This document shows, piece after piece, positions 3,397 to 39,238 of a stretch of DNA of 64,000 nucleotides. Position 1 is the first letter of the stretch, and every line of letters begins with the position of its first letter. A model generated the notes under the pieces. The model searched no databases, was not told where the DNA came from, and saw nothing but the letters and a program-made list of their open reading frames with translations. Where the stretch lies: positions 1 through 64,000 of the IMG/VR virus record IMGVR_UViG_3300020576_002722. One strand, 5' to 3'. The DNA comes from a virus (lineage: Duplodnaviria > Heunggongvirae > Uroviricota > Caudoviricetes). Made by a program: the position numbers and the translations under genes.

Positions 3397-3397
3397 T

Positions 3398-4159
3398 ATG
3401 GCATTCTCAGACCTTCTGATGCACTCGCTGCCGGCCGTAGGGCAGATCGCCGGCGGACCTGTTGGTGGTGCCGTCGGTACACTGGCCGCAGGAGTACTCG
3501 GGCAGTTCGCGGCTGACGGTCAGCAAAAGGCGGCCGACGCCGCTGTGAACGCCATCCCGATGTACGACCCGAAGCAGCTGTCGTACATGAACGACGTGCA
3601 GCGTACCGAGCGTGCGTTCCGTGCAGGCACCGATCCCAATACCACTAACGCTATCAGGCAGGCGGTTCAGGCTGGCGGCCAGGTAGGTGCCAACCTTGTT
3701 CGTGCCGGTGGTACGGACGTGTTCAGCAACCTCCTTCGTGGCCAGGCAGCTACGCAGCAGGCGATCGGAAGGTACTCTGCTGCCGCAGGCGCGGAGGCCA
3801 ACAACGTCATGAACATGCGTGGTCGTCTGGTGGACAACATGGCCGGGAGGGTCTACTCCCAGCAAAGGATGAGGGCCGACGATCTGATGGCTAAGGTTGC
3901 CAGGACGCGCCAAGACGCGAACAACAACATGCTCGCAGCGGTCCCACTTCTTCCGCAGGTTGGACTCAAGAAGAGCACTACTCCGTTTCAGGACATCTTC
4001 GGGCAGCCGGATGGTGCTCTTGGTGGGTCGTGGCGTTCTGAGGGAACCAATGGAGCGATCCCTTCTTCTCCGACAGAAGCAATACAATACCCAATGATCG
4101 ACGGATCGGTGCAATCACCCACATCCGGCTACGACATGGGGCAACAAGTGATAATCTGA
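3398..4159 (+). CDS. virion internal-protein-like protein (Gly/Ala-rich hydrophobic N-terminus)
   Basis: ATG (MAFSDLL...) lies 2 nt after the upstream stop. The N-terminus AVGQIAGGPVGGAVGTLAAGVLG looks membrane-active. The function is inferred from position. Confidence 0.6.
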   Translation: MAFSDLLMHSLPAVGQIAGGPVGGAVGTLAAGVLGQFAADGQQKAADAAVNAIPMYDPKQLSYMNDVQRTERAFRAGTDPNTTNAIRQAVQAGGQVGANLVRAGGTDVFSNLLRGQAATQQAIGRYSAAAGAEANNVMNMRGRLVDNMAGRVYSQQRMRADDLMAKVARTRQDANNNMLAAVPLLPQVGLKKSTTPFQDIFGQPDGALGGSWRSEGTNGAIPSSPTEAIQYPMIDGSVQSPTSGYDMGQQVII

Positions 4160-8800: not shown

Positions 8801-11800
8801 GGAGGCCGCCAGGCAGGTAATGAACGAGTCGCCAGAAACGAGGTCATCTATTGCCAGGTTCCTTGAGTCGTACGGTGGGGCCATTCGTAAAGAGGATGGA
8901 TCGATCGATATCGAGGCTACCGTAGCGGACCCGAAACTGGCGCACGAGATATACGCAGAGTTCGTTTCCAGCGTGGCCAATGGTACCATCAAGCTGAACG
9001 GTGGACTTCGCACCTGGCTCAAGGACATGTACAACAAGATCATGGCCACGCTCGGTGTGTCCATGAAGTTCGACCCGAAGAGCGACGACGACTACATCAA
9101 GCTGGCTGCTGATCTTGCGAGCGCCATGAAGACCGGTCGCGTGATCAGGGCTGCGGAGAATGTTGCGGAGAATACAGCACCGGCACTCAGCGTACGTCGT
9201 GCATCAGACCTCGCCCAGCAACTAAACATCGCATCCACCGGGGCCGAGAAGGAGTTCTTCGGGAAGACGTGGCCTGGCTTGCTCAGGCAAGTAGGCAATG
9301 TATTCAAGCCTACCAAGGCTGGGTTTGAGGCTGCTGCCGATCTGGCCGTGAAGGACGTTGAAGAGTTCACCAGGGAGAATCCGAAGTACCAGGACTTCTA
9401 CAACAAGGATTGGGCACTTGCTGTGGCTATGCTCAATGATGCGTTCCCGATAACCAAGGAGCAGCCTGATCTGGTTCTTGCGTTCAGGGCTATGTCCGGA
9501 CTTACGAGTCCACAGACGTCACTTGGCCAGAATATGGTTGAAGCTGTATCTGCATTCGATCACTGGCTGAATAACGGAAGCTTCGATGCTGTAAAAGTAG
9601 TACCAACAGAGAAGGGTAATTTCTCACTCAAGAAATCACCGTTCAGTCTTGGTGGAAAGACAGCAACGAACAAGGCCAGGTCCCTCAAGGGTCTCGGCAA
9701 GCTGATAGATGAGAACGGAGTTGGAAAGGCTATTGAGATACTGAAGGAGCCTGTGTCCGCAAAGGAACTCAATGAGTTCAACGGGAGCCTTGGGTACAAG
9801 AGCGCTGTCGGAGGCATGAAGGCCGTGAAGAACGTGGTCTTGTCTGCTACTGGGCAGAGCGATAAGGTGCCAAGGATGTTCGTGTTCGGACCAAAGCTCG
9901 GTGCCTACACACTGAACTCGCTTGGTGATGGAAGGTTTACGACTATCGACATCTGGGAGAGCAGGTTTATTCGTTCATACTTCCCGAGGATGTTCGCGAG
10001 CGCCGGAGGAAAGATCCTTAACAACAGCACTGATAGCGATATCTTTACCGAGTTCATAGAACAATTCGCAAAGGCTTTCAGGGAAAGGAACGGATTTGAC
10101 CTTGACCCGTCGGCGTATCAAGCGATGCGCTGGTACACTATGATCGACGCTGCCCAGAAGGCAGGGTACACAAAAGCACTCACAGATGGAACAGTCTCAG
10201 ACTACACAGCAGAGGCCCTCGGAAGGGTTAAAGGACACGTTGTTCCTGGATATGCTGGCCGAGGTGGCTTCGACAGCTATCAAAGCAATGATCCAGAAGC
10301 AGAAAACTATGTACCATTCAGTATCCGCCGAGGATCTCCCGGTGGCGACACAGGAGGGAGGGCCGAGCCAGGAAAGAACCTGATACCTAAGGATATCAGG
10401 AAAAACCTCACCAGCGATGGCGACGGTAGCTACTTGTTCTACCATTACGGTGAAGACCTGAATGGCGGACGCATCAATCCAAAGTATGCTGGAACCGGGG
10501 CTGATAAAGGTACCAGGAACGAAGGAAGGAACAACAATGTATCCATGTACTACACGAAGCCTGACGAGCGGGAGTCGATGGTATCTGGAGATGTTCACGT
10601 TGTCAAGGTTCCCGAATACAAGGTGTATCCGTTCAATACCGATCCACTTGGCCTGTACGACAAGGCAGAGAGGATGTTCAGGAAGGACTACGGAGACTAC
10701 ATCGACTTCAGCCCCGTGAAGCAGGCTGACTACATGGGCCCGCTGGCTGCGAAGGCCGGATTCGACATGATGGTGGCCCAGTGGTCAAAGTTCCCGTTGC
10801 GCGGTGAGACGACCAAGGCGCTCAAGTGGGATCGCGAAGCTACCGACAAGGCGCGTGATCCAGCGTTGTCCACCGGATCACAGAAGTTCAACGACATCGC
10901 CCGCGCACTGATCGCTGCCGGCCACAACACCAAGGCCAAGGCCAAGGCGTATCTGAAATCGAAGGGGCAGGACGGGATCATTGATGCTGTCATCGAAGAG
11001 ATGGGGCGCATCCTTGAGGCGCAGCGCGAGATCCGCAAACGCAATGCGGCCGACAATAAACTGTCTGGAGAAACGACCACTCCGTTGCAGAAGCAGATCA
11101 TCGACGACTCTGGACCCGGACAGAACAGGTCTATGATCACTGTCGATGAGCGTATGCTGCTGAAGGACCGCATCAAGCGTGAGGCGCAGCTCGCTGCACA
11201 GTCAGCCCGCAAGGCAGCGACGGCCGCTCGCAATGCAGCCGACCTGGCGCAGACGCACACCGATCAAGGGTACAGGCAGGGCCTCGCCGAGGGTCAGCTT
11301 GCCGGCGAGATATCGGGCAAGGCTCAGGGTCGCAAGGAGGGTGCCCGTGAGGGAGCGGCAGAGGCCGCCCGTCAGCGTGACCTGTTCGTGAAGAGCGTAC
11401 GCGCCCATCTATCGGAGCTTGGCACCAAGTTTACGGAGGCCAAGACGAAGGCCATCATGACCAGGGCCGTGTCGGTGAACCCGACAAACAGGAACCAGGT
11501 CGAAAGATTCTTGGCCTATCTGGATGCGAAGATCGACGAGGCCAACGAGGCGGCACTCGGCAGCGCCGTGGACAGGATCATCGAGCTGACCAACCCGTCA
11601 CGGTACAAGCAGACCAACGAGTCTGGCATCCTGAAGGGGAAGATCGATGACCGCGTTCGCAAGCTGCTCGGGGTGATCCACTCGGCAGTCAAGGGAATGA
11701 CGCTCGAAGAGGTGTCCGACAAGATCGACGCCATCGACGCAGCGCTTTTCTCTCCAGACGCTGATGTGGCCCTTCTGGAGGACCAGCTGGAGGCGTATCG

Positions 11801-14081
11801 GATCGCCCACGGTGCCCTGTCCGGTGATCCGGAAGGCGTGGCCGGTGCGGAGGAGGCAGTGAAGCAGATCATCGCAGAGGGTCGCAGCAAGTTCCGCGAG
11901 GTGCTGGCCGCCAAGCACGAGCGTTACGTGGCCATGAGGCAGGATGCCATCTCGGCCATCACTGGCGACAAGGGTATCAAGTCAGGGTTCGAGGAAGTGA
12001 AGCTGGAGGAGAAGAAGCGCAACTTCCTAAATCACATGCTCGACGGGATCGGATCGTACCTCGACATGAACGAGGGACTCCGTACGCTGCTCGACAAGAT
12101 CGACAAGTCAGCTAGGGGCGGAGATCCTTGGAGCGGCAAGCTGGACCAGTTCTATCGCAAGGTGGCCAACAGCCGCAACACGATGAACACCAGGGCCATC
12201 TCCACGCTCGACGAGATGCGTGCGAAGCTGGAGGACATCTACGGCGGGAAGAAGGAGGTTGCTCGCGCCGTGAACGAGAACTCAAAAGTGAAGTCTCTCG
12301 GGAACTTCACCGACCTGAATGGCAACAACGTGGAGATGCTGCTGTCACAGAACAGGGCATACTACCTGTACAACCTGATGAAGAGCCCGGAGAACGAGGC
12401 TACATTCAGGGAGATGGGATTCACGGACGAGATGAAGAACGCCGTCGTTGACTTCATGACACCGGAAGTGAAAGAGTGGGCCGACTGGCAGACCGACGTG
12501 TTCTACAAGAACATGTACAATGATGTCAATGAGGTGTACAAGGGACTCAACTACATTGATCTACCGAAGAACAAGTACTTCACGCCTATCAGGCGCGTTG
12601 GCGTTGATGACTCTGCACCTGTTGAGGTGGGAAAGTTCCAGCGCAGCGCTGCCGGTGTAGTGAACGGATCACTGAAAGAGAGGACCGGATCCACGAAGCC
12701 GTTCGATCTGACGACGGATGGAGACAGCGTACTGTACCAGTACGTCGCTGCGATGAATCACTACATCGCATTCGCTGAGACTGTGCGCGATCTTAACGCA
12801 ACGTTCGGATCATCTGATGTGCGCAAGGCTATCTCGCAGAACGCCAACTCCAAGGATAACGATATAATCTCAGGGTTCATTGACGCGCTTGCGAATGACG
12901 GAAGGAATAGGGCGCTGTCGATAGGATTCTGGCAGAAGATACGCGGACTGCACGCAACAGCAAAGCTGTCACTGAACATGGTGGTCGCACTGAAGCAGCT
13001 GTCAGCGATGCCGGCGTACATGACCGATCTGTCGCCGAAGGACTTCGCTGTCGGCCTGATGGACTTCATGCGCCACCCGATCGAGGCGTCCAATATCCTG
13101 ATGGAGAGTTCGTACATCCAGGAGCGATACAAGAGCGGGTTCGATCGCGACATGGCCATAGCTATGGCTCGCGACTACCAGAAGGCGTTCTCTGGAAAGA
13201 GCACCCTGATGGACAAGCTGATGTTCAACGTGCGCTGGGGCGACAAGGCCGCAGTGTTCTCCGGCGGATGGGCGGTGTACAAGTACCATCACGATAAGGA
13301 GATCAAGGCTGGAAAGAGTGAGGCAGAGGCCAAGCGCATAGGTCTGTCCGAAATGGACGAGGCCACCAAGATGTCGCAGCAGTCTACCGGCACCGAGGAC
13401 TTGAGCGCATTTCAGAGGGCTGGAGAGGCATTCAAGTGGTTCACGATGTACAAGACGAACCCTATGGCTTTCTTCCGCCAAGAGCGCAAGGGCGTCAGGG
13501 ATATGGTTCGCGGTCTCAAGTCCGGTGACAAGACGCTGGCCGGAGATGGGTTCCGAAGGTTTATCGTGTACCACTTCGTACTCCCGGCCGTATTCCAGTT
13601 CGTGGTCAATGCACTTCCAGGCGTACTTACGTCTTCGGACGATGACGACGACAAGGATATGCTCAGGGCCCTAGCTCTTGGATCCATGAATGGATTGTTC
13701 ATAATGGGAGACTTCATGGAATGGATAGGCGATCGACTAACTGGTAAGCCGTGGGCTACCCACAAGGGGTCGCAGGCGGTGGAGGTTCCTATCTTCAAGT
13801 CCATGTCAGACATGATAGCGTCCATAGGCGATGTCATTGAGAGTTGGAAGAATGACGACGATGAATTGACCAAGAACATCATGGAGACGCTTCTTGAGGC
13901 TGGCGATGCGTCAGGCATACCAGCCAAGAGGGCGGCCAAGATGATGGAGAATGGAAGGTTCACGATGGAGTACTGGGACCAGTTGACGCCTGGCGAGCGT
14001 GCGGCCCTGATTTCGGGGTACGATCCACGGGAGATGGGCGACGGATACGGAGGACACCTGCAAAACCCTGAGAATCAGTAA
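5820..14081 (+). CDS. giant (2,753 aa) virion-associated multidomain protein with a zincin HExxH motif, coiled coil and C-terminal TM segments (ejection / polyvalent-type protein)
   Basis: Uninterrupted 8.26-kb ORF. HEGVH lies at nt 8733-8747 (aa 972-976, context LAAHEGVHALF). There is an N-terminal tandem peptide repeat F(A/D)DLVKAATS, a long Ala/Gln/Arg coiled coil near nt 11150-11400, and hydrophobic segments (FIVYHFVLPAVFQFVVNALPGVL, LALGSMNGLFIMG) near the C-terminus. The gene sits between tail genes and the fibre gene. Confidence 0.85.
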   Translation: MSTQTPPTFADLVKAATSSDAPQVPPAGNPASSGSFDDLVKAATSPKESTQSPEKAPVVGAEAGLTGSGTRSDLPAQRPPGMPELVRPDMPQASTPEQDAALDNIGGPPQEGQQIGGVSLIQQPKRGMRMTLPTYTIGQDLKVREVRKPSMAEDSFVRTQQRESERAKEAMAKEQAASEWRRQLDPTKEDDPQVRDRIMGEKQALDEQLSLANQYDPVAPDQRGVFAGYFEQPQPHDMGGYVFDQRDDKILKDYVQHLQMHGDGQYKTSTTLGALQAGRESAIDRFADYYKDALQTQTDALNGRVTRLYQMRERGADPQMLQQEAADIEAGYEFVQARMDDWVKNAPKSEVRKAIEQRQKETNEEYDRIKDDWFTPLYATKKGLHAAQLGWNEMLFGSAAGIARAFGDKENYDWSDDVSDYVDRATKMNESALPTEWQQPFSRTVKSPISGKETTKYNILPSLIRGGGGMAALMATGNLAAAGGRALGMALGRGVVGAAGGGANVALSEATMTGVGRASALAGELPGYGQNAGFTAGMFFPEYESYVRQAMDGGVPEKLASDAGLFYALGSAYIERLNPQLYVGGKKAFRTAFTQAIRDGKGPKAALGDGLRQIGIQGGKEGTEELMQGELMRKTNLAVNMLTGADLESATTLREKMNEFGTGAILGSIAALPSNGVARQKRTLAEKESLAFAAEYPEFAAEVIRRDVPEAQQKEFLDKLEKLNKLYVGNGLTDLPVDNADRVAQALAKKKDLQEQIKKAPIADALRSAKGDPREVEVNKLNVDVLREMNVPEDDIALVLASEGVINLPDGAKVTKGADGKLTLDIKEPKEGEPAVSKEDVLSGLVKQVHGIAGERTTAAAKEAKKAPDKDPDEEVEIAPVGDATDLDAALASVTPGMNKALDSEVEAAAKSLSGVGVKVVVHDDIKSFASAFEQAGGSKSVDHLNHEGFYDRGGRTIHINRTNNRSGLAAHEGVHALFMGALSDVANGRQIIAEAARQVMNESPETRSSIARFLESYGGAIRKEDGSIDIEATVADPKLAHEIYAEFVSSVANGTIKLNGGLRTWLKDMYNKIMATLGVSMKFDPKSDDDYIKLAADLASAMKTGRVIRAAENVAENTAPALSVRRASDLAQQLNIASTGAEKEFFGKTWPGLLRQVGNVFKPTKAGFEAAADLAVKDVEEFTRENPKYQDFYNKDWALAVAMLNDAFPITKEQPDLVLAFRAMSGLTSPQTSLGQNMVEAVSAFDHWLNNGSFDAVKVVPTEKGNFSLKKSPFSLGGKTATNKARSLKGLGKLIDENGVGKAIEILKEPVSAKELNEFNGSLGYKSAVGGMKAVKNVVLSATGQSDKVPRMFVFGPKLGAYTLNSLGDGRFTTIDIWESRFIRSYFPRMFASAGGKILNNSTDSDIFTEFIEQFAKAFRERNGFDLDPSAYQAMRWYTMIDAAQKAGYTKALTDGTVSDYTAEALGRVKGHVVPGYAGRGGFDSYQSNDPEAENYVPFSIRRGSPGGDTGGRAEPGKNLIPKDIRKNLTSDGDGSYLFYHYGEDLNGGRINPKYAGTGADKGTRNEGRNNNVSMYYTKPDERESMVSGDVHVVKVPEYKVYPFNTDPLGLYDKAERMFRKDYGDYIDFSPVKQADYMGPLAAKAGFDMMVAQWSKFPLRGETTKALKWDREATDKARDPALSTGSQKFNDIARALIAAGHNTKAKAKAYLKSKGQDGIIDAVIEEMGRILEAQREIRKRNAADNKLSGETTTPLQKQIIDDSGPGQNRSMITVDERMLLKDRIKREAQLAAQSARKAATAARNAADLAQTHTDQGYRQGLAEGQLAGEISGKAQGRKEGAREGAAEAARQRDLFVKSVRAHLSELGTKFTEAKTKAIMTRAVSVNPTNRNQVERFLAYLDAKIDEANEAALGSAVDRIIELTNPSRYKQTNESGILKGKIDDRVRKLLGVIHSAVKGMTLEEVSDKIDAIDAALFSPDADVALLEDQLEAYRIAHGALSGDPEGVAGAEEAVKQIIAEGRSKFREVLAAKHERYVAMRQDAISAITGDKGIKSGFEEVKLEEKKRNFLNHMLDGIGSYLDMNEGLRTLLDKIDKSARGGDPWSGKLDQFYRKVANSRNTMNTRAISTLDEMRAKLEDIYGGKKEVARAVNENSKVKSLGNFTDLNGNNVEMLLSQNRAYYLYNLMKSPENEATFREMGFTDEMKNAVVDFMTPEVKEWADWQTDVFYKNMYNDVNEVYKGLNYIDLPKNKYFTPIRRVGVDDSAPVEVGKFQRSAAGVVNGSLKERTGSTKPFDLTTDGDSVLYQYVAAMNHYIAFAETVRDLNATFGSSDVRKAISQNANSKDNDIISGFIDALANDGRNRALSIGFWQKIRGLHATAKLSLNMVVALKQLSAMPAYMTDLSPKDFAVGLMDFMRHPIEASNILMESSYIQERYKSGFDRDMAIAMARDYQKAFSGKSTLMDKLMFNVRWGDKAAVFSGGWAVYKYHHDKEIKAGKSEAEAKRIGLSEMDEATKMSQQSTGTEDLSAFQRAGEAFKWFTMYKTNPMAFFRQERKGVRDMVRGLKSGDKTLAGDGFRRFIVYHFVLPAVFQFVVNALPGVLTSSDDDDDKDMLRALALGSMNGLFIMGDFMEWIGDRLTGKPWATHKGSQAVEVPIFKSMSDMIASIGDVIESWKNDDDELTKNIMETLLEAGDASGIPAKRAAKMMENGRFTMEYWDQLTPGERAALISGYDPREMGDGYGGHLQNPENQ

Positions 14082-21543: not shown

Positions 21544-22017
21544 ATGAGCGTACGACGCATTGAACAGGTCATGATGCAGGTGTTTTCCTTTGGGGACAAC
21601 ACTGTATCCAAGGTGATCACTGTGATCCTGTCGGCGGCAGCTGGATTCATCGCCCCCATCTGGCCTTTCCTGGCCCTGTCGTTCGTGCTTTCCGGATTCG
21701 ACCTGTACACTGGTTGGCGCAAGAGTAAGAAGCTGACCGGATCATCAGTAACATCCAAGGGGCTCGGAGGAACAGTAGAGAAGATTGTCCTGTACAGTCT
21801 GGCCATCCTGCTGGCCGAGGGCGTGCGAGTGGTGTTCGGCCTGGATGACATTTGGGGTCTCAATAAGATGACCTACGTGGTGGCTGGACTGATCGCGTGG
21901 CGTGAGCTTCTGAGTTGTTTTGAGAACATCTCCATAGTGATAGGTTGGGACCTTGTCGGTGAGTTCAAGGAGGCTATAAGGAATGGCGTGGCATCCATCT
22001 TCAGGAGCAAGTCTTAG
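21544..22017 (+). CDS. holin (LL-H/holin_4-like)
   Basis: The start MSVRRIEQV is chosen after the upstream stop. There are several TM segments and the motif GFDLYTGWRKSKKLTGSSVTSKGLGGTVEKIVLY, which resembles the DxxTG...S...G..KK core of this holin family. Confidence 0.65.
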   Translation: MSVRRIEQVMMQVFSFGDNTVSKVITVILSAAAGFIAPIWPFLALSFVLSGFDLYTGWRKSKKLTGSSVTSKGLGGTVEKIVLYSLAILLAEGVRVVFGLDDIWGLNKMTYVVAGLIAWRELLSCFENISIVIGWDLVGEFKEAIRNGVASIFRSKS

Positions 22018-22543
22018 CGAACTCTTTGTGTAGCCTTTTGGCTGCATCAACGTATGCCTCATGAGCCTTTTGTGGATCGTCAAACACGCCCAGGTAGTAG
22101 TGCTTTTTGTTGGCTCCTATCTGGGCGACCCATTTGTTGCACTCCTTACTCCACGACACCCCTTTGAATCCGCTCTTGTTCCTGGAGTCCATGCTTCGAT
22201 TCATGTTGTTTTGACTCCTAGTAGCGAGCCTGAGATTGGACAGGGAGTTATTCCAGGGGTTATTGTCGATGTGATCAATGACCATTCCTTTGGGGATCAC
22301 CCTCCCCAGCATGGACCAGATGACATGATGCGCCGCCATCCTTTTGTAGTCAACACATACGGTTACCTGAAGGGCGGATCCATCTGGTTTTGTGCTTTTG
22401 CTTCCGGCCACCTTTCCGAGGTCGCGAACAAGGAACGTGTTGTAAGCCTGATTGCTTCCAAAGGACTCTCTTGGGCGCATCTTGAACGTAAGGTCCCCAG
22501 AGATGGGATCATAGTTGAATCGGTCAGAAAGGTTGGTGGTCAT
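22001..22543 (-). CDS. HNH-AP2 homing endonuclease
   Basis: Only the C-terminal 180 aa of track ORF 22001..23650 are credible. They carry IDHIDNNPWNNSLSNLRLATRSQN (HNH_3) followed by GFKGVSWSKECNKWVAQIGANKKHYYLGVFDDPQKAHEAYVDAAKRLHKEFA (AP2). The locus has lower GC and is convergent with the holin gene, overlapping its last 17 nt. Confidence 0.85.
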   Translation of the reverse strand: MTTNLSDRFNYDPISGDLTFKMRPRESFGSNQAYNTFLVRDLGKVAGSKSTKPDGSALQVTVCVDYKRMAAHHVIWSMLGRVIPKGMVIDHIDNNPWNNSLSNLRLATRSQNNMNRSMDSRNKSGFKGVSWSKECNKWVAQIGANKKHYYLGVFDDPQKAHEAYVDAAKRLHKEFAKTCS

Positions 22544-22765: not shown

Positions 22766-23770
22766 ATGGCAGGAAAGCAAAGCGTTGCAGGGCAGATCGT
22801 AGAGCAGTATTGCAAGGACTTCCCGAAGATCAACAACGGAAGGCTGGCAAGAAAGATCGCAGAGGAACACCCACAGCTGGGGACCAGTGAGAAGATCCGA
22901 TGGCAGGTAAGGTTCTACCGTCTCCAGGCCGGGAAGACGCACCGCGACACCAGGAAGAAGAACGGTCACGCTCACATGGAGAAGGAGTCCGCTTCGAGCA
23001 ATGTGTACGAGCTTCCTGAGCCACGCATCATTGAGCGGGTCCCGTTCAAGATGCCAAGCTCGATCCGCAAGCTGCTTGTGTTCTCGGACATCCACGTACC
23101 GTACCACGACATGGACGTGGTCAAGCGTGGCATCGAGTTCGGCAAGAGCGAGGGGTGCGATGGGATTCTGCTGAACGGCGACACAATGGATATGTGTGGG
23201 CCATCGTCGCATGATCCGGATCCACGCAGCCTGGACCTTCCGTCCGAGCTGGAGGATGGACGCCAGTTCCTCAGGCACCTGAGGAATAAGTTCCCTAACA
23301 TCCCCATCTACTTCAAGGACGGGAATCACGAGAATAGGCTGGAGCGATATCTGATCAAGCAGGCACCCGTCCTGCTTGGCGTGGATGATTTCGAGCTGCG
23401 CAGCCTGCTCCGCATGGGCGAAGTGGGCATCCAGTGGATCGGCGACAAGCGCCTGTTCCTGGCCGGCAAGCTGGTCATCATACATGGCCACGAGTACAAG
23501 GGCGCGGGTGGTGTCAATCCGGCCAGGTGGCTCTCGCTGCGCACGTCCGGATCGATCATGTGTGGTCACTTCCACCGAAGCTCCTCGCACTTCTCCAAGT
23601 CCATCATGGACGAGATCTCTGGTGCCTGGTCTACCGGATGCATGTGCCACATGAGTCCCGACTACTCACCGTACAACCAGTGGAACCACGGGTTCGCGAT
23701 GGTCCACGTCAACAAGGACAAGACCTTCGAGGTTGAGAACAAGATGATGATCGGTGGCAAGGTACGATGA
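22766..23770 (+). CDS. calcineurin-like metallophosphoesterase
   Basis: The motifs appear in canonical order: FSDIHVPYHD, NGDTMD, GNHENR, IIHGHE, GHFH. Confidence 0.85.
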   Translation: MAGKQSVAGQIVEQYCKDFPKINNGRLARKIAEEHPQLGTSEKIRWQVRFYRLQAGKTHRDTRKKNGHAHMEKESASSNVYELPEPRIIERVPFKMPSSIRKLLVFSDIHVPYHDMDVVKRGIEFGKSEGCDGILLNGDTMDMCGPSSHDPDPRSLDLPSELEDGRQFLRHLRNKFPNIPIYFKDGNHENRLERYLIKQAPVLLGVDDFELRSLLRMGEVGIQWIGDKRLFLAGKLVIIHGHEYKGAGGVNPARWLSLRTSGSIMCGHFHRSSSHFSKSIMDEISGAWSTGCMCHMSPDYSPYNQWNHGFAMVHVNKDKTFEVENKMMIGGKVR

Positions 23771-24294
23771 TCGAGAAGCTGCTGGAGATGGCCGTCGAGT
23801 TCGCCGAGAGGCTGACGCCTGTGTACTTCGTCAAGGAGTACCAGCGAGGGGTCATGTTCCGTGGCGGCAGGTTTAAGGGAGAGATCACGCCAGGCACCCA
23901 CTTCAAGTGGCCGATATTCGATGACATCGAAGTGTTCCTGGTGGCCACTACAACGATGGCTCTTCCAGCGCAGAGCGTCACCACCCGTGACGGCCGCAAT
24001 GTAGTGATCAAGTCCAGGATCAAGTACAGGGTAAGCAACGTCAAGGTGTTCGGTGTCGAGGTGGCCGACGCGCTCGATGCACTCAGCGACATGGTGTGCG
24101 GGATCCAGTTCGACCTGATCCGATCGATGACATGGGAGGAGTCGTGCCTGGCCAACCTGGACGAGGTGATCACAGCCGACGCCAAGAAGGAGGCCAAGAA
24201 GTGGGGCATCACCATCGAGAAGGTGACCGTGACCGACTACTCCGAGATGCGATCGATACGCCTGTTCAACGAGGGCGGCAAGGTGACCGACTAA
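23767..24294 (+). CDS. SPFH/band-7 (prohibitin/HflK-like) domain protein
   Basis: ATGA overlap with the upstream gene. The sequence VKEYQRGVMFRGGRF...PGTHFKWPIFDDIEVF...TRDGRNVVIKSRIKYRV is the typical SPFH core. Confidence 0.8.
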   Translation: MIEKLLEMAVEFAERLTPVYFVKEYQRGVMFRGGRFKGEITPGTHFKWPIFDDIEVFLVATTTMALPAQSVTTRDGRNVVIKSRIKYRVSNVKVFGVEVADALDALSDMVCGIQFDLIRSMTWEESCLANLDEVITADAKKEAKKWGITIEKVTVTDYSEMRSIRLFNEGGKVTD

Positions 24295-24334: not shown

Positions 24335-24342
24335 TACATTTG
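24335..24342 (+). promoter_or_regulatory. class I -7 box TACATTTG (context CTTACATTTGGGGC) upstream of the tRNA cluster
   Basis: The same extended motif TTAC(A/C)TTTG(C/G)GG occurs at 45075(-), 50895(-), 51567(+), 52061(+) and 54108(+). This copy lies 37 nt before the first tRNA-like gene. Confidence 0.5.
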
Positions 24343-24378: not shown

Positions 24379-24448
24379 GGCCGTGTAGCTCAGTTGGTAG
24401 AGCAGCCCCGACCGGGGTTGGTCGCAGGTTCGAGTCCTGCCACGGGTT
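24379..24448 (+). tRNA. tRNA-like gene with a defective anticodon arm (pseudo-tRNA or anticodon-less tRNA mimic)
   Basis: Parse: GGCCGTG-TA-GCTC-AGTTGGTA-GAGC-A-GCCCC-GACC-GGGGT-TGGTC-GCAGG-TTCGAGT-CCTGC-CACGGGT-T. The D- and T-arms are canonical. The anticodon arm is 3 nt short (4-nt or at best 6-nt loop), so no 7-nt anticodon loop can be drawn. There is a G2:G71 mismatch. Confidence 0.45.
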
Positions 24449-24570
24449 CAGGGAGTTCTTTTCTTCATGGTAGCAAAGGCGGGGTGATCACCGCCGAACT
24501 GGTAGTCGGAAGGCCGCAAGCCGGAGACGTTGTACCACATACGGCCTGTTATAGGACTTGGGGCCGTGCC

Positions 24571-24642
24571 GGACGGGTAGCTCAGATGGTAGAGCAGCCG
24601 CCTGAAAAGCGGTGGCCGGTCGTTCGAGTCGACCCCTGTCCA
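24571..24642 (+). tRNA. tRNA-Phe: tRNA-Phe (anticodon GAA)
   Basis: Cloverleaf drawn by hand: GGACGGG-TA-GCTC-AGATGGTA-GAGC-A-GCCGC-CTGAAAA-GCGGT-GGCC-GGTCG-TTCGAGT-CGACC-CCTGTCC-A. No encoded CCA. Confidence 0.9.
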
Positions 24643-24757
24643 CTATATGGCGGCGTAGCTAACCGCAAAGCTGGCAGATGTTGGGATGAACGCATATACT
24701 CCCGGCCCACGTTCAGAGATGCCACACAGCGCTGCTTTATTGACTCGGGCGCGAAAT

Positions 24758-24829
24758 TGGACAGTAGCACAGCGGTAGTGCAGCTCCCTGTTAAGGAGCA
24801 GGTCGGTGGTTCGATCCCATCCTGTTCAG
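24758..24829 (+). tRNA. tRNA-Asn: tRNA-Asn (anticodon GTT)
   Basis: TGGACAG-TA-GCAC-AGCGGTA-GTGC-A-GCTCC-CTGTTAA-GGAGC-AGGTC-GGTGG-TTCGATC-CCATC-CTGTTCA-G. Confidence 0.9.
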
Positions 24830-25069
24830 CAAACAAGCGTGTGCCCTGGCAAGGGTTTTGCTCCACGCCCGAAGTCACACACCCTTCAAGTGTGGCCTAT
24901 GTTTATGGGTGACGCGCCGGAGAGACGGCACCATTAGTAGCCAATGGTCCTGACGGGTAAAGCCGTGGGTAAAGCTACCATCCCGTGGGTGGAAACACGT
25001 GCAATGTGAACCGGCACATGACAGTGTATAAAACAACGGTGACTTGGTGCTTCAGAGAAAGTACCGCCT

Positions 25070-25141
25070 GCGCGGATGGTGTAATTGGTAGCATGTCAGC
25101 CTTCCAAGCTGAGGGTGCGGGTTCAAGTCCCGCTCTGCGCT
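25070..25141 (+). tRNA. tRNA-Gly: tRNA-Gly (anticodon TCC)
   Basis: GCGCGGA-TG-GTGT-AATTGGTA-GCAT-G-TCAGC-CTTCCAA-GCTGA-GGGT-GCGGG-TTCAAGT-CCCGC-TCTGCGC-T. The discriminator T at 25141 is followed by C, then the ATG of the next gene at 25143. Confidence 0.9.
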
Positions 25142-25142
25142 C

Positions 25143-25535
25143 ATGGTGCGAATCGTATCCCATACCAGGATCAAGAAGCTCAGTGGCAAGGGCTACTGGA
25201 TATCGAAGATCTGTGTGCTCGATGAGCGCGGAAACACCGTGTTCGATTGCTACGCCCTGGAGGATGCGGCTGAGTGCCCTCCGGTAGGTACATGGGAGCT
25301 TGTCCTGGAGTACTCGCCCAAGTTCGGCAGGAAGCTGTACGAGATGAAGGGGATACCTGGCAGGGCCGAGATCAAGTACCACGTCGGAAACACCTTGGCC
25401 GACACCGACGGGTGCCCGCTACTCGGAGCCAACTACATCGGCAACACTGTCAATGGATCACGCCTAGCGCTTGATCGATTCATGAGGGCCATGCGTGGCG
25501 TCGACTGCACGACGGTCACCATATCGATCCAATAG
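25143..25535 (+). CDS. DUF5675-family protein (possible YkuD-like cell-wall enzyme)
   Basis: 130 aa. The sequence GTWELVLEYSPKFGRKLYEMKGIPGRAEIKYHVGNTLADTDGCPLLG matches my memory of the DUF5675 signature. Its H-x-G-N...D-G-C spacing resembles the H...GC catalytic motif of L,D-transpeptidase folds, which is inference. Confidence 0.7.
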   Translation: MVRIVSHTRIKKLSGKGYWISKICVLDERGNTVFDCYALEDAAECPPVGTWELVLEYSPKFGRKLYEMKGIPGRAEIKYHVGNTLADTDGCPLLGANYIGNTVNGSRLALDRFMRAMRGVDCTTVTISIQ

Positions 25536-25548: not shown

Positions 25549-25571
25549 CTCGTGTTCATGTGTGGTCAAGG

Positions 25572-25604
25572 CTCCAGGTCTGAAAGGATCTGGAGTTCTT
25601 GTTT
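25572..25604 (+). terminator. stem-loop plus T-tract (rho-independent terminator or 5'-UTR hairpin)
   Basis: CTCCAGGTC-TGAAAG-GATCTGGAG (9 bp including one G.T) is followed by TTCTTGTTT. The role is ambiguous because a promoter-like decamer lies just upstream. Confidence 0.5.
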
Positions 25605-26354
25605 ATGTGGGCACCAATGCCTATGTTTGACACCCCTATGAGGATCCTGTTCGCTGCCCTGATGCTCGTATCCTTGTTGGTACGCGGGCAATCCACATGC
25701 TCGACGGCAGCTCAGTTCTCGTACGGATGCGAGAACTTCCCACCACTGTATCCGGTTCAGGTGACCAGGTGCTACACCTTCCAGACGGGAGGATCGTCGG
25801 CCTACTACAACTTCTTGGTCACGGCCAACTGCTCCAACGACGTCATCTATTCCTTGTACAACCAAGAGTGCGATGTGCTGATCGACCAGAACATCTCCGG
25901 CGTCTTCAGCCTGATTCCGAATCAGGTGTACGTCGTGTGTGTGGACGTGGCCTGTACCAGCTCGGGCGGTATCAGGGCCATCTGTCCGTACGAGGAGTTC
26001 ACTCTTCCGATCGAGCTGCTCCGCTTCGATGCGCGTGCTGCGCAGGACGGTGTATCGGTGTCGTGGTCCACGGCCACCGAGCAGAACTCCTGGTACTTCA
26101 CCCTGTCCAGGTCCAATGACACGGAGCATTGGAGCCAAGAGGCCCAGATCCAGGCGGCCGGCAACAGCCAGAACACCATCAGGTACCAGTTCGTTGACCA
26201 TGAGCCCGCACTCGGCATCAGCTACTACAAGCTGGAGAGCGTTGACATCGACGGCAGCGCCCGCTTCATCGGCGTGGCCTCGGCCATCATGGTGTCGGGT
26301 GGAATTACATCATCCATTGATCCATACGACCTGATCGGTCGCCAAGTGAAATGA
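25605..26354 (+). CDS. secreted protein with signal peptide and a Bacteroidota-type C-terminal beta-sandwich/sorting-like domain
   Basis: The signal peptide MRILFAALMLVSLLVRGQS suggests the more likely start at 25638. The C-terminal region ELLRFDARAAQDGVSVSWSTATEQNSWYFTLSRSNDTEHW...GNSQNTIRYQFVDHEPALGISYYKLESVDIDG resembles a domain common in secreted Bacteroidota proteins. Confidence 0.65.
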   Translation: MWAPMPMFDTPMRILFAALMLVSLLVRGQSTCSTAAQFSYGCENFPPLYPVQVTRCYTFQTGGSSAYYNFLVTANCSNDVIYSLYNQECDVLIDQNISGVFSLIPNQVYVVCVDVACTSSGGIRAICPYEEFTLPIELLRFDARAAQDGVSVSWSTATEQNSWYFTLSRSNDTEHWSQEAQIQAAGNSQNTIRYQFVDHEPALGISYYKLESVDIDGSARFIGVASAIMVSGGITSSIDPYDLIGRQVK

Positions 26355-30709: not shown

Positions 30710-31105
30710 ATGGATATCAACTGTACTAAGTGTGGTTCCCTGATCAGGGCCGACAACAGAAGGTCAAAGAGTCGCTGGTGCAAGGAGTGTCACAAGGAGT
30801 ACGACAGAGCCAGGTATGCGCAGAACGCAGACTCAAGAAAGGCAGCGATCAAGGCACAACGCATATCTGTTCAAGAGTTTGTAGACGAGATCAAGAGAAC
30901 GTCTCCATGCACTGACTGCGGGGGATATTTTCATCCGGCCGTAATGGAATACGATCATCTGCCAGGAAGCAAGAAGACGGAGACTCCGTCAAACCTTGCC
31001 AGGACAGGAAGGAAGAACAGGTTCATTGAAGAGATCAAGGGGTGCGAACTGGTGTGCGCAAACTGCCACAGGATGAGGACCGTTCTACGCAGGAGGAAGC
31101 GCTAG
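30710..31105 (+). CDS. HNH endonuclease (free-standing)
   Basis: There are Cys pairs at the N-terminus (CTKCG...CKECH) and the motifs YDHLPGSKK...ELVCANCH. Local GC is lower. Confidence 0.8.
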   Translation: MDINCTKCGSLIRADNRRSKSRWCKECHKEYDRARYAQNADSRKAAIKAQRISVQEFVDEIKRTSPCTDCGGYFHPAVMEYDHLPGSKKTETPSNLARTGRKNRFIEEIKGCELVCANCHRMRTVLRRRKR

Positions 31106-31606: not shown

Positions 31607-31990
31607 TCAGCGCCCGGATCGAGGGTAGAAGACCCCTTTCATGTAGTCGTTCACGTCTGTCATGAACTCCTCTAGGGAGCGGCATTCATAGACTATCCAT
31701 CCAGCCTCTGAGAACCTGATCTGCATCTCTTTCTGTGACTCGGATAGCTTGCCTTTGTCAGACTTCATCTCGATGGCCATGCCGCAGACGTGCGTATCTC
31801 CATACGTCCTGGGATGGCACACCAGGATATCAGGGACTCCGGCCAGTACCCCCATGTCCTTCCACAATTTCCCCATGTGTGGACTCCCGGCATCTCTGCC
31901 ATTGGGAGGGTGGAACGCCAGGACGTTAGGGTACTGTAACCGGAGCCACTTGATACACGCCTTCTGGAGCGCTTGTTCTGGACGCTTCAT
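31607..31990 (-). CDS. VRR-NUC (PD-(D/E)xK) nuclease
   Basis: The start MKRPEQALQKACIKWL has an ATGA overlap with the RNA ligase stop. The catalytic motifs are GVPDILV ... GMAIEMKSDKGKLSESQ. Confidence 0.8.
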   Translation of the reverse strand: MKRPEQALQKACIKWLRLQYPNVLAFHPPNGRDAGSPHMGKLWKDMGVLAGVPDILVCHPRTYGDTHVCGMAIEMKSDKGKLSESQKEMQIRFSEAGWIVYECRSLEEFMTDVNDYMKGVFYPRSGR

Positions 31991-33063
31991 TCCTCGTACT
32001 TGAGAAGGAACTGAGGATTGATCGCCTTGAACGATATGCGTCCACGGGTCACCGTCTTGCCGGTGATGAAGGTCTCGGTCATCTCTTCCAGGCTGCGCAC
32101 CACGATCCCCTCGGCCCATACGTCGGGGTTGATGGCGCTCTTGCGGGTGGCGAAACCAACCAGCTCGTCAACACTGAGGGCACCAAGGGTGAGGCAGTCG
32201 ATGTACGGGACCATCTTCAGGTCCATCGATCCGAATGCGACTGCGGCATCGCTAGGCAGGTACGGCTTGCCGGCATCGATGTCGAACACGTTGAAGAAGA
32301 GAACCTTGCGGCCGGTCAGCTTGTACTTGTTGCCCTGGATCCCTTCGCCGATCAGCTCGCCCTGGATGGCGATGTTCTTGCCGTAGTCGCGGAGCTTCTG
32401 CTCGACGTTCATCTCTCGGGCGTACTGCCAGAACGCATTCCTTTCGTCCTCCTTCAGCTCCAGGTTGCGCGAGCAGACCCCGAACTCCCCGTTGTACAGG
32501 TAGAAGGTAGCGCTGCTGCCGTCCATCTTCTCGCGGATCTCCACCTGCGCTGCGGCGTACTTGTCCAGGATGCCTGGCATGTTCTGGATCCGCTCCTCGT
32601 CCGTCTTGTGGATGAAGGATGGGAAGTAGCCGCGCACGGTACCGCCCAGGCAGGCCGGGATGGCGGGCTCGTACTTGATGATGCCGAGCAGCTCTGTCAC
32701 ATCGTACCCTTCTGCTGACAAGCCCAAGGCTGCGAACAGCTCGTGCTCGGCCGTGATAACATCGGCAAGGATCGACACCGGCATCATCAGGCCCTGGGAT
32801 ACCTGTCCCTTGAGTTTGATGGTGCGCACACGCATGTGGCGTGGCTTCATGAACTCGAACTCTGGTCGGTCAGGAAGGATGCTGTCCGGCTCTATGAATA
32901 CGATCGAATCGCCAATTCTGTGTCCGGCATCGTTCCTGATCACGCACTTCCACCCCAATACGCTGGCTACGGACACTTCGTCGGCTCCGGGTATTGGCTG
33001 GATGTCAGAGATCGTCTGTATGCTTGCAAGTTTTCTGCTCATGATTTTGTGTTTGAGAGCCAT
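31987..33063 (-). CDS. ATP-dependent RNA ligase (DRB0094/Rnl5-like)
   Basis: The N-terminal module is RKLASIQTISDIQPIPGADEVSVASVLGWKCVIR. Nucleotidyl-transferase motif I is EKMDGSS (KxDG). Downstream motifs are EGIVVR and ISFKAINPQF. Confidence 0.85.
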   Translation of the reverse strand: MALKHKIMSRKLASIQTISDIQPIPGADEVSVASVLGWKCVIRNDAGHRIGDSIVFIEPDSILPDRPEFEFMKPRHMRVRTIKLKGQVSQGLMMPVSILADVITAEHELFAALGLSAEGYDVTELLGIIKYEPAIPACLGGTVRGYFPSFIHKTDEERIQNMPGILDKYAAAQVEIREKMDGSSATFYLYNGEFGVCSRNLELKEDERNAFWQYAREMNVEQKLRDYGKNIAIQGELIGEGIQGNKYKLTGRKVLFFNVFDIDAGKPYLPSDAAVAFGSMDLKMVPYIDCLTLGALSVDELVGFATRKSAINPDVWAEGIVVRSLEEMTETFITGKTVTRGRISFKAINPQFLLKYEE

Positions 33064-37946: not shown

Positions 37947-38687
37947 CTATCCGTTGTATGATCGACCGACATCTTGCGATGAGTCGTCTGACCTTGTGGG
38001 TATGTATTGGCCTCCGTCCGACTTGATGGACCCCTTCACGGTTCCATTGGTCTTCATGAAGTGCCTGAATCGTTCCCTATCTTCGGGCTTCCAGTCCATC
38101 TCCGGCTTGACCGGCCCCAGGTCATCCTCCATCTTCAGATCCTCCACATACTCCTCCAGTTGCTTGGGTTTCGCTGCAACGAAGGAGAACCAGTCGGGCT
38201 TCTCGTACTTGTTGGAGCCCTTCATGCCGGCGTTGATAGAGCTGGCTGCCATGAGCCACTTGATGTCGTCGTATACCTCGGAGGATGTCTGTATCCTGCG
38301 CACGCCATAGATGATCGTAGCGTGGTCCCTGCTGTACGCTGCGGCGATCGATACATAGGTCAGCCCCATCTTGCGCAGCAGCCACCAGGCCACCATGCGT
38401 GCATTGGCCGCCGTGGCATTGTACCTGAGACCGGATCGCATGATCTCGTCGGTCAGCCCGTGGCACAGTACCTCGCTCATGGCCGACAGTACAGCCTCGT
38501 TCGCCTTGGTAACGAACTCGGGCGAAGACATCGATTGCGACATCTTCTGTGAGGCACGCAGCTGCTTGTCCCGAAGGATGCAACCTGCCACGACTCCATC
38601 GATGTCCTTTGTCCCGAGGGACGCCCTCTGTCTGATGTACTTGGCCAGGTGGCCAGGTACCGTGATCGTCATCATCTCTGCTTCCAT
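37947..38687 (-). CDS. DnaA C-terminal (domain IV) HTH-like protein, putative replication initiator
   Basis: The sequence NARMVAWWLLRKMGLTYVSIAAAYSRDHATIIYGVRRIQ matches the DnaA domain IV pattern (R..A.YL.R..T..S...IG..F.RDH.TV.H....I). The ATG lies 1 nt after the tRNA-Arg discriminator. Confidence 0.65.
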   Translation of the reverse strand: MEAEMMTITVPGHLAKYIRQRASLGTKDIDGVVAGCILRDKQLRASQKMSQSMSSPEFVTKANEAVLSAMSEVLCHGLTDEIMRSGLRYNATAANARMVAWWLLRKMGLTYVSIAAAYSRDHATIIYGVRRIQTSSEVYDDIKWLMAASSINAGMKGSNKYEKPDWFSFVAAKPKQLEEYVEDLKMEDDLGPVKPEMDWKPEDRERFRHFMKTNGTVKGSIKSDGGQYIPTRSDDSSQDVGRSYNG

Positions 38688-38688
38688 G

Positions 38689-38760
38689 AGGCCCCGCCAG
38701 GAGTCGAACCTGGATCTAGCGTTTAGGAAACGCTCGTTCTGTCCATTGAACTATGAGGCC
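38689..38760 (-). tRNA. tRNA-Arg: tRNA-Arg (anticodon CCT)
   Basis: Sense strand: GGCCTCA-TA-GTTC-AATGGACA-GAAC-G-AGCGT-TTCCTAA-ACGCT-AGAT-CCAGG-TTCGACT-CCTGG-CGGGGCC-T. It is followed by C, then ATG (38687). Confidence 0.9.
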
Positions 38761-38764
38761 AAGT

Positions 38765-38841
38765 GGTGTCGGGTGTGAAACAGGATACCTGTCGTCGAAC
38801 CAGGTAAACGCCCCTGCGTTGCCTTCGGGGCACCCGACACC
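38765..38841 (-). ncRNA. structured element (11-bp closing stem, internal hairpin, T-arm-like hairpin) between a stop codon and tRNA-Arg
   Basis: Sense strand: GGTGTCGGGTG-[GCCCC GAAGGCAACGCA GGGGC]-GTTT-[ACCTG GTTCGACGA CAGGT]-ATCCTGTTTCA-CACCCGACACC. It starts 4 nt after the TAG at 38846 and ends 4 nt before tRNA-Arg. Confidence 0.45.
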
Positions 38842-38845
38842 GGGA

Positions 38846-39238
38846 CTACTTCTCTTTCTTGTCCAGGTCGTCCAGATCCTGGAGCTTGTCCTTGAGCTGC
38901 TTGTTCAGCATGTCCATACGCCACGCGTAGTAGTCCTTGAAGCTCTGGAATCCACTGGGCTGCTTCTCCCAGGTGCGGTACAGGATGTTCTTCATCCGCT
39001 TGCTCTTGCTTACCGGGTTGTCGTTCAGATCCGTGTCGAGGGCATCCAGCTCACTCTTCTCGGCCTGGGTCAATTCGGTCTCGGCCTTGAAGTACATGTA
39101 GCCGAAGGTGTCGATCATCCCGTGGATCTTGGCGATGTCCTCGGGAGTCATCTCCTGGGTCACGAACTTCAGCATCACGGTCCTGTCCTTCCGGTTGCTG
39201 TAACCGTCGAACTGTGCTGGTAGAAGGATCTTGCCCAT
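38846..39238 (-). CDS. hypothetical protein (130 aa)
   Basis: Clean ORF with a Lys/Asp-rich C-terminal coiled coil. Confidence 0.65.
   Translation of the reverse strand: MGKILLPAQFDGYSNRKDRTVMLKFVTQEMTPEDIAKIHGMIDTFGYMYFKAETELTQAEKSELDALDTDLNDNPVSKSKRMKNILYRTWEKQPSGFQSFKDYYAWRMDMLNKQLKDKLQDLDDLDKKEK

Follow-up and report, generated by a model that had tools for sequence, protein, structure and literature searches.

Two protein-coding genes in the DNA of an uncultured phage are fused to the 3' ends of transfer RNA (tRNA) genes, such that a single nucleotide separates the discriminator base (position 73) of each tRNA from the ATG start codon of the open reading frame (ORF) that follows. The phage is represented by IMG/VR record IMGVR_UViG_3300020576_002722, of which we have analysed positions 1 to 64,000; this whole stretch of 64,000 nucleotides (nt) is referred to as the window. 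The first ORF encodes a protein of the DUF5675 family and abuts a tRNA-Gly(UCC) gene, and the second encodes a DnaA_C-like helix-turn-helix protein and abuts a tRNA-Arg(CCU) gene. The fusion is confirmed as an observation, and the interpretation put forward in the original prediction, namely that processing of the tRNA at designed junctions releases leaderless messenger RNA (mRNA), is partly supported. We give about an even chance to a reading in which 3' processing of the tRNA yields a leaderless (C)AUG mRNA from a tRNA-ORF co-transcript, which would then be translated by the leaderless pathway. The geometry of the junctions, the absence of Shine-Dalgarno (SD) sequences and of -7 promoter boxes, the promoter architecture and the comparative pattern can be read directly from the DNA, and all that is said below on transcription, RNA processing and translation follows from sequence logic.

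The junction at the DUF5675 gene reads ...GCGC-T-C-ATGG (25137-25146, plus strand), and that at the DnaA_C-like gene reads ...GGCC-T-C-ATGG (38693-38684, minus strand); at both, the coding sequence starts 1 nt past the discriminator and 2 nt past the acceptor stem. It had been claimed that the tRNA-Gly acceptor stem ends at 25140 and that the discriminator T (25141), a single C (25142) and the ATG (25143) follow, and these coordinates are correct according to ARAGORN, Rfam and the sequence itself, in which TCTGCGC forms the 3' strand of the stem. The further claim that GGCC-T-C-ATG is found identically at both junctions holds for the geometry and for the end of tRNA-Arg, whereas the acceptor stem of tRNA-Gly ends in GCGC; what the two junctions have in common is the heptamer C72-T73-C-A-T-G-G. 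The window has five tRNA genes according to ARAGORN, all of which score above the gathering threshold of the Rfam tRNA family (RF00005, score 29), and a permissive Rfam scan of the window for degenerate tRNAs or t-elements gave nothing past these five (Table 1). The acceptor stem of tRNA-Arg has 6 of 7 pairs in the window, where A7:C66 is mismatched, and 7 of 7 (A7:U66) in most strain variants, which carry T for C at position 66 (38695, minus strand) and so mend the pair. Each of the two ATGs is the first start codon downstream of an in-frame stop, which in the case of DUF5675 is a TGA within the tRNA (25110), and an earlier start is therefore excluded for both ORFs. The DUF5675 ORF has a coding score of 36 under a self-trained codon model, and the identical protein is encoded on 23 metagenomic contigs. 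As the N-termini of homologues at 98, 67, 63 and 41% identity fall within 1-3 residues of M1, and the sole alternative start is a GTG at codon 2, the start of DUF5675 at 25143 is well supported.

Signals for translation and transcription in the rest of the window provide the setting in which these junctions have to be read. Of 42 upstream regions, 4 contain SD-like 4-mers, compared with 6.3 expected at random, so there is no SD enrichment, and the upstream regions are rich in A and C and poor in G. The sequence TAnnTTTG, the sigma-A promoter box of Bacteroidota, is found as 16 exact boxes, half of which (8/16) lie in the correct orientation no more than 60 nt upstream of a predicted start (binomial P = 6e-9). 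In Bacteroidota, including Flavobacterium, the -7 box is located at -12 to -5, with 4-5 nt from the box to the transcription start (PMC9723704, PMC6847099). In the window such a box stands 4 nt from the ATG of the genes at 54120 and 20114 and 7 nt from that of the genes at 30710 and 14094 (two of these four boxes with one mismatch), and because of this distance the four genes should have leaders of 0-3 nt; promoters 4-7 nt from the ATG had been noted earlier in the window, and these genes bear that out. About one third of the promoter-proximal genes in the window look leaderless. Over their first ~50 nt the predicted mRNAs show no unusual structure (z -0.2 to +0.9), which does not discriminate between the readings considered here.

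Neither of the two abutting ORFs has such a promoter. Between -12 and -5 the sequences ahead of the two ATGs read CGCTCTGC and GGCGGGGC, neither of them box-like, and no -7 box was found in the 85 nt upstream of tRNA-Arg. The DUF5675 gene has no leader, SD or promoter of its own, and the expectation that no promoter lies between tRNA and ORF agrees with what we find, as neither a -7 box, in or after either tRNA, nor an SD sequence is present. Both ORFs would therefore have to be transcribed through the tRNA. For the plus-strand cluster the presumed promoter is the exact box at 24335-24342, with a predicted transcription start at ~24347, about 31 nt ahead of the first tRNA-like gene, and the simplest unit would run from this promoter through four tRNA genes and DUF5675 to a terminator-like hairpin. 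It is nevertheless conceivable that a phage-specific or alternative-sigma promoter is hidden inside the tRNA genes and gives primary leaderless mRNAs independently of processing: the promoter search covered the host sigma-A consensus only, and the very large unannotated proteins of the phage (e.g. that of 5820-14081, 2753 amino acids (aa)) could include a phage RNA polymerase. We regard this as very improbable, as neither tRNA has a -7 box at the right distance, the two tRNAs have only CTCATGG in common in their 3' halves, and the tightly constrained sequence of a tRNA leaves little room for a promoter.

The relatives of the first junction are the strongest support for the reading in which processing makes the mRNA leaderless. 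The DUF5675 gene is syntenic in three lineages, those of the window, L012 and L011. In the relative L012, whose DUF5675 protein is 63% identical to that of the window, the genes are ordered Band_7, tRNA-Met, tRNA-Asn, tRNA-Gly and DUF5675, and the tRNA-Gly ends 3 nt from the ATG (...CACCCGC-T-CAG-ATG, compared with ...TCTGCGC-T-C-ATG in the window); the body of this tRNA-Gly(UCC) is strongly diverged from that of the window, and the cluster has its own TATATTTG box. In the relative L011 (67% identity) the tRNAs end ~105 nt upstream of DUF5675; next come a terminator-like hairpin and a box, so that the sequence reads ...TATCTTTG-CAAGC-ATG, i.e. box, 5 nt and ATG. From this box, transcription is predicted to begin either with the A of the start codon or with the C that precedes it, corresponding to a leader of 0-1 nt. 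Nearly the same 5' end of the DUF5675 mRNA would thus be predicted from a promoter in L011 and from a tRNA 3' end in the window and L012, which makes these loci an unusually clean natural comparison of an abutting tRNA and a promoter at leaderless distance for the same gene. Distant DUF5675 genes (33-52% identity) have no tRNA nearby at any of 15 metagenome loci, and the tRNA linkage is therefore confined to the close lineage. At one of the distant homologues (L037, 2510-2524), TACTTTTG is followed by 4 nt and a candidate ATG; should translation begin at this ATG, the promoter would be of the leaderless type. Protein queries with DUF5675, the DnaA_C-like protein and DnaB, and searches with exact tRNA 3' ends, found no relatives in IMG/VR, and cultured-phage records gave no DNA or protein match to the window.

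In the reading that we prefer, tRNA and ORF would be co-transcribed, the Gly cluster and DUF5675 from the box at 24335-24342, and tRNA-Arg and the DnaA_C-like gene within the transcript of the long minus-strand replication operon in which this tRNA is embedded. Endonucleolytic 3' maturation, likely by host RNase Z and after U73 or possibly C74, would free the tRNA and the mRNA together. The tRNA would be completed by CCA-adding enzyme, and the ribosome would recognise the 5'-terminal AUG of the mRNA (pC-AUG or pAUG) and enter the leaderless pathway, as apparently for those genes with a promoter 4-7 nt from the ATG. The tRNAs would in this way punctuate the transcript, and the excision of tRNA-Arg would split the replication operon mRNA in two. 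Translation should need removal of the tRNA, because a folded tRNA 2 nt from the AUG fills the space upstream of it that the 30S ribosomal subunit would occupy. RNase Z cleaves CCA-less precursors directly 3' of the discriminator (PMC7479834); a cut after U73 would therefore give an mRNA that starts pC-AUG, and if C74 is left on the tRNA the mRNA would start exactly with AUG. None of the five tRNAs in the window encodes CCA, all having C74 followed by A or T, and they therefore need endo- or exonucleolytic trimming and a CCA-adding enzyme. Among 58 phage proteins we found no RNase Z or CCA-adding enzyme, and host enzymes would thus be needed.

The nature of position 74 bears directly on the argument for design. 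The original prediction took two identical 1-nt spacers as evidence of design, and this inference finds no support, as the spacer is the near-universal C74 and the remainder of the heptamer consists of C72, U73 and a G at +4. A C follows the discriminator in 5 of 5 tRNAs of the window (discriminator/trailer T/CA, A/CT, G/CA, T/CA and T/CA), in 6 of 6 tRNAs of L011 and L012 together, in 22 of 23 in Bacteroides phage crAss001, in 9 of 9 in contig L124, and in 87% of 455 phage tRNAs sampled from unbiased loci (L159-L258; 54% with C and then non-C, 30% with a full CCA). As position 74 is usually C, an identical 1-nt spacer is expected and is uninformative as to design; the ATG of each ORF falls on positions 75-77 of the tRNA gene. 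For the same reason we have rejected CTCATGG as a shared motif, since C72, U73, C74, the ATG and a common G at +4 account for it. Over half of the sampled phage tRNA genes encode only the first letter of CCA. The prevalence of C74 may reflect recognition of C74 by RNase P or a rule of 3' processing, and it bears on where trailers and downstream mRNAs begin.

The second junction is less secure than the first, since the start of its ORF is in question. The DnaA_C-like gene belongs to the replication module, where it adjoins DnaB and a primase-like gene, and its ORF has further in-frame ATGs at codons 5 and 6. If codon 6 (ATG 38672) were the true start, excision of the tRNA would leave a purine-rich leader of 16 nt (C-AUGGAAGCAGAGAYG), and DUF5675 would be the sole true abutment; we consider this rather unlikely. 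Public gene calls do begin at codon 6 (P0005, 241 aa, on 22 contigs), and codon 5 (38675-38673) varies among strains, being ATG in the window and ACG in most strain variants (L014-L023). An exhaustive profile-free search for homologues gave one near-full-length relative (P0006, 30-31% identity), the alignment of which begins only at residue 31; the N-terminus is left unconstrained and homology cannot decide between M1 and M6. Against a start at codon 6, the automatic call was probably driven by the score of an SD-like GGAAG/GAGA, which is of little meaning in a system without SD, and leaderless initiation on processed RNA favours the 5'-proximal AUG. Even with a start at codon 6 the gene would be promoterless and dependent on transcription through the tRNA. 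Of the earlier concern that the true starts might lie further downstream, then, DUF5675 is cleared by the N-termini of its homologues, while the DnaA_C-like gene stays uncertain. The strain variants, which are the only relatives found for this junction, all retain it. In the same strains DnaB is only 79% identical to that of the window while the junction region is nearly identical, and the replication module is therefore mosaic. This case also affects gene calling in phages that do without SD sequences, as predictors moved the DnaA_C-like start 15 nt downstream.

Several further points weigh against the leaderless-by-processing reading. Co-transcription, the enzyme, the cut site and translation are each deduced rather than observed, and a phage-specific type of promoter is possible. 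Cytidines right after the discriminator inhibit RNase Z (PMC7479834), and both trailers start with C. A processed mRNA would bear a 5'-monophosphate, which may make it unstable. Only a minority of mRNAs is leaderless in those Bacteroidota that have been studied: in B. thetaiotaomicron 3.7% of 5' untranslated regions (UTRs) are below 10 nt, and in F. psychrophilum leaderless mRNAs make up 5.5%; the host of the present phage is probably Bacteroidota-like, as judged solely from promoter and SD signals. (A type IX secretion system (T9SS) sorting domain in the product of 25599-26354, considered as a marker of a Bacteroidota host, is unsupported by NCBIfam and Pfam and was rejected.) For the second junction the DnaA_C-like protein may start at codon 6, as discussed above, and no diverged relatives were found; relatives of DnaB (P0111, P0112) were found, and the contig of P0112 (L259) ends before the junction. 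Furthermore, the reach of the reading is limited, as the window case covers two genes of unestablished importance. Finally, same-strand genes are closely packed in the window, with gaps of no more than 3 nt at 17 of 49 gene-gene junctions (35%), and under this null two abutments have a probability of ~0.1.

How unusual the junctions are depends, therefore, on the null that is chosen. We have taken an unbiased sample of 100 viral contigs picked by T-arm sequence alone, giving 455 usable tRNAs, and counted ORFs of at least 70 aa downstream. An ATG was found at 0-3 nt from the discriminator in 1 case, at 4-9 nt in 4, at 10-30 nt in 36 and at 31-60 nt in 19. Abutment (0-3 nt) thus concerns ~0.2% of phage tRNAs, or about 1 in 60 tRNA-to-gene junctions, and under this general phage tRNA null two abutments out of two in one window have a probability of ~3e-4. 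The lone abutting case in the sample is a tRNA-Val (L164, 3506-3579, minus strand; A/C/ATGG) with an ORF of 144 aa. The pipeline recovered its positive controls, i.e. both junctions of the window and that of crAss001 Gp8; a strict filter for the first start in frame misses L012 and L124, and the relaxed count is reported here. A first, biased survey had scanned for ATGs 0-3 nt after a tRNA and gave 125 seeds, 26 of them opening ORFs of at least 60 aa; a bimodal spacing that it suggested was subject to ascertainment bias and did not reappear as strongly in the unbiased sample. A per-contig SD index gave 23% vs 21% when abutting junctions were assessed for concentration in SD-less phages, and it is too noisy to tell the two apart. 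The survey of phage genomes for tRNA 3' ends within 3 nt of a start codon, which had been proposed, thus finds the arrangement rare (1/455) yet recurrent (in crAss001 and L124 as well), and the interest of the junctions is mechanistic, not statistical.

The tight packing of the window raises the question whether the abutments came about by passive compaction, an SD-less host having allowed genes to drift up to a tRNA with no role for the abutment itself. The ORFs would then be translated from whatever RNA exists, and removal or unfolding of the tRNA would still be needed. Besides the 17 close gene-gene junctions, this explanation can call on the spacer base being merely C74, on the distant DUF5675 loci without tRNAs, which make the linkage lineage-specific, and on L011, where the gene works without an abutting tRNA. 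Packing of genes against genes, however, usually means translational coupling, which is impossible for a tRNA, and a folded tRNA 2 nt from the AUG occludes the 30S site, so that expression would depend on processing anyway. Moreover, the abutment has been kept between the window and L012 despite strong divergence of the tRNA-Gly, and it is rare among phage tRNAs generally. We judge passive compaction distinctly unlikely as the whole explanation.

The functionally closest system to the one proposed is the punctuation of mitochondrial transcripts by tRNAs, a model that was reportedly put forward by Ojala, Montoya and Attardi in 1981. In mitochondria tRNA genes flank the mRNAs in a polycistronic transcript, and excision of the tRNAs by RNase P and RNase Z (ELAC2) sets the ends of the mRNAs, which have leaders of 0-3 nt and are translated without SD sequences. 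As in mitochondria, the coding sequences of the window begin 1 nt from the discriminator (3 nt in L012). Unlike in mitochondria, the tRNA abuts the ORF on its 5' side only: the genes upstream end 84-85 nt before the tRNAs, downstream of DUF5675 come a hairpin and the next ORF rather than a tRNA, and the DnaA_C-like gene has the next ORF 5 nt downstream and no tRNA at its 3' side. The arrangement also concerns only two genes in 64 kb, in a phage that would rely on bacterial enzymes, and it is known here from sequence. In plant mitochondria and Haloferax, t-elements, which are tRNA-shaped structures cut by RNase P or RNase Z, define mRNA ends in a related manner; the elements of the window differ in being bona fide tRNAs, and only the spacer upstream of tRNA-Arg (38761-38845) might be a t-element.

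Among the contigs surveyed, L124 (IMGVR_UViG_3300015171_000002, 112 kb, 32% guanine plus cytosine (GC)) gives the clearest phage analogue of mitochondrial punctuation and comes much nearer to it than the window, as its ORFs have tRNAs on both sides. It carries an alternating tRNA-ORF array (1699-4850) with the junctions tRNA-Met/CT/ATG, tRNA-Cys/CT/ATG, tRNA-Val/CT/ATG and tRNA-Asp/CCTT/ATG, and the stop codons of its ORFs lie 0-5 nt ahead of the next tRNA; judged by eye, the first ORF encodes an HNH-like protein and another a DPPY-motif methylase-like protein. Single abutting junctions are also present in L068, L049, L111 and L164. The cultured phage crAss001 (MH675552, = L260; 5163-5712), which has an SD-less Bacteroidota host, resembles the window in that the discriminator of its tRNA-Gly(GCC) (T, 5235) is followed by C74, one more nucleotide (CT) and the ATG of Gp8 at 5238. 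ORFs of its array are interleaved with tRNAs at gaps of 1-4 nt: the 3' end of Gp8 runs 14 nt into the next tRNA-Gly(UCC), other coding sequences stop 3-4 nt before the tRNA that follows, and Gp5 overlaps tRNA-Ser. The abutting ORF differs from those of the window in being a mobile HNH gene that overlaps the next tRNA: Gp8, by annotation a putative HNH endonuclease, has no counterpart in most PhiCrAssBcn relatives, where the two tRNAs stay adjacent, and it is therefore a mobile insertion. The cases of L124 and crAss001 show that the arrangement is present in a tractable system and that some abutting ORFs are selfish genes. In the literature searched, we found no paper that comments on the crAss001 tRNA-Gly/Gp8 junction.

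The closest phage precedent is found in the tRNA clusters of T4 and T5, where, as proposed for the window, processing of the tRNAs cuts an ORF-bearing RNA. ORFs in the clusters of T4 (segB) and T5 (F-TflI-III) are transcribed in the tRNA precursor from a promoter upstream of the cluster, and low or processing-limited expression has been proposed for these endonucleases (PMC2330249). It differs from the window in that segB has its own 5' UTR and SD sequence and processing is proposed to reduce its expression, whereas the ORFs of the window have no UTR and processing would be needed; neither are the genes of the window homing endonucleases, unlike the T4 and T5 ORFs. The putative HNH endonuclease Gp8 of crAss001 and the first ORF of L124, HNH-like by eye, fit the segB type in part but have no UTR.

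This precedent suggests a coupling of the opposite sign, in which a cut further downstream and exonucleolytic trimming would destroy the start codon, so that the ORF would be expressed only from unprocessed RNA and kept low. Processing of the T4 precursor has been proposed to impair the segB mRNA (PMC2330249), and the inhibition of RNase Z by C74 would favour other pathways of maturation. In L054, L082, L108, L131 and L139 an encoded CCA overlaps the ATG (CC/ATG), so that either the CCA end can be mature or the AUG intact, but not both; in addition, the abutting ORFs of crAss001 and L124 (the first) are of HNH type, and mobile genes gain from low expression. The genes of the window, however, are not homing endonucleases, and one of them is DnaA_C-like and lies in the replication module. 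The promoter of the L011 homologue, at leaderless distance, argues that the form with a 5'-terminal AUG is the expressed one, and an unprocessed precursor, with the tRNA fold adjacent, should be untranslatable. An antagonistic relation of this kind seems to us quite improbable for the window.

Leaderless mRNAs made directly by transcription are well known, for instance lambda cI from pRM, and many occur in Actinobacteria and Deinococcus (PMC4633059, PMC9031893). The mRNAs proposed here would be like them in having the AUG at or near the 5' end and no SD sequence, and both junctions use ATG, in keeping with the strong requirement for AUG; they would be unlike them in having a processed 5'-monophosphate in place of a primary triphosphate end. 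As a tentative generalization, to which we give somewhat less than an even chance, tRNAs would double as punctuation in phages of SD-less bacteria, with host RNase P and RNase Z producing (C)AUG mRNAs, also from the arrays of crAss001 and of contigs like L124; bacterial viruses would then have a counterpart of the mitochondrial system, and expression would be coupled directly to maturation of the tRNA. If true, a tRNA-maturation nuclease and not RNA polymerase would set the 5' ends of some phage mRNAs, a mode known in mitochondria that we have not found described for bacteriophages in the literature searched, and the synthesis of these proteins would be tied to the tRNA-processing capacity of the host. 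Our search for literature on tRNA punctuation or leaderless mRNAs tied to phage tRNAs yielded only organellar work and the T4 discussion. Since cultured crAss001 carries the same type of junction at Gp8, a direct test is possible.

Table 1. Features at and around the two tRNA-ORF junctions of the window
Feature	Position	Strand	Remarks
-7 promoter box TACATTTG	24335..24342	+	Exact TAnnTTTG; presumed promoter of tRNA cluster and DUF5675
tRNA-like gene	24379..24448	+	Abnormal, shortened anticodon loop; ARAGORN 'tRNA-???'; Rfam 45.8 bits; trailer T/CAGG
tRNA-Phe(GAA)	24571..24642	+	ARAGORN, Rfam; CCA not encoded; trailer starts CT
tRNA-Asn(GUU)	24758..24829	+	ARAGORN, Rfam; CCA not encoded; trailer starts CA
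tRNA-Gly(UCC)	25070..25141	+	ARAGORN; Rfam 67.4 bits; acceptor stem 7/7 pairs; U73 = 25141
C between discriminator and DUF5675 ATG	25142	+	tRNA-gene position 74
DUF5675 gene, 130 aa	25143..25535	+	Pfam PF18925, E = 5.5e-18; PHROG 1501; ATG = tRNA positions 75-77
Terminator-like hairpin, 12 pairs, then T-rich	25570..25597	+	Probable end of tRNA-DUF5675 transcription unit
DnaA_C-like helix-turn-helix gene, 246 aa from ATG 38687	37947..38687	-	Pfam PF08299, E = 5.6e-8
C between tRNA-Arg discriminator and ATG	38688	-	tRNA-gene position 74
tRNA-Arg(CCU)	38689..38760	-	ARAGORN; Rfam 58.2 bits; solitary; U73 = 38689; acceptor ends 38690
Structured 85-nt spacer, stop codon of upstream gene to tRNA-Arg	38761..38845	-	Fold; no -7 box by inspection

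The spacer upstream of tRNA-Arg contains a terminal stem of 10-11 base pairs (GGUGUCGGGUG / CACCCGACACC) around two hairpins, one of which has a T-loop-like GUUCGA sequence, and the 171-nt stretch 38680-38850, which includes tRNA-Arg, folds at -65.2 kcal/mol (z = -2.0). The spacer was not recognised by Rfam; it may be a degenerate tRNA without an anticodon arm or a t-element, or it may stabilise the 3' end of the upstream mRNA after RNase P cleavage. The spacer ahead of the plus-strand tRNA cluster is of similar length (84 nt) but holds a promoter. In the first gene of that cluster (24379-24448) the anticodon arm is CCCC-GACC-GGGG, and the gene is kept in every strain contig that reaches this position; it may represent a pseudo-tRNA, act as a decoy or serve as an element for processing. 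The spacers within the cluster are long for a phage array, i.e. 122 nt (24449-24570), 115 nt (24643-24757) and 240 nt (24830-25069), and they might encode small RNAs. In the last of them a terminator-like hairpin (24878-24894) precedes a near-consensus box, TATGTTTA (24899-24906), which may be a second, internal promoter for tRNA-Gly and DUF5675.

Other genes of the phage encode an RNA ligase (PHA02142 oligonucleotide/oligosaccharide-binding (OB) fold; 31987-33063, minus strand), a NAPRTase-family protein (61201-61986, minus strand) and a calcineurin-like phosphoesterase (22766-23770, plus strand), the last of which lies ~600 nt upstream of the tRNA cluster with a Band_7 gene (23767-24294) in between. 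Further Pfam matches include a Macro domain, a phosphoribosyltransferase, PRPP-synthetase-like domains, endonuclease VII and a MazG-like domain. The set as a whole suggests tRNA repair and salvage of nicotinamide adenine dinucleotide (NAD+) as counter-defence. A gene with HNH_3 and AP2 domains, of the homing-endonuclease type (180 aa in database calls), is located ~1.8 kb upstream of the tRNA cluster at ~22001-22543, on the minus strand among plus-strand genes.

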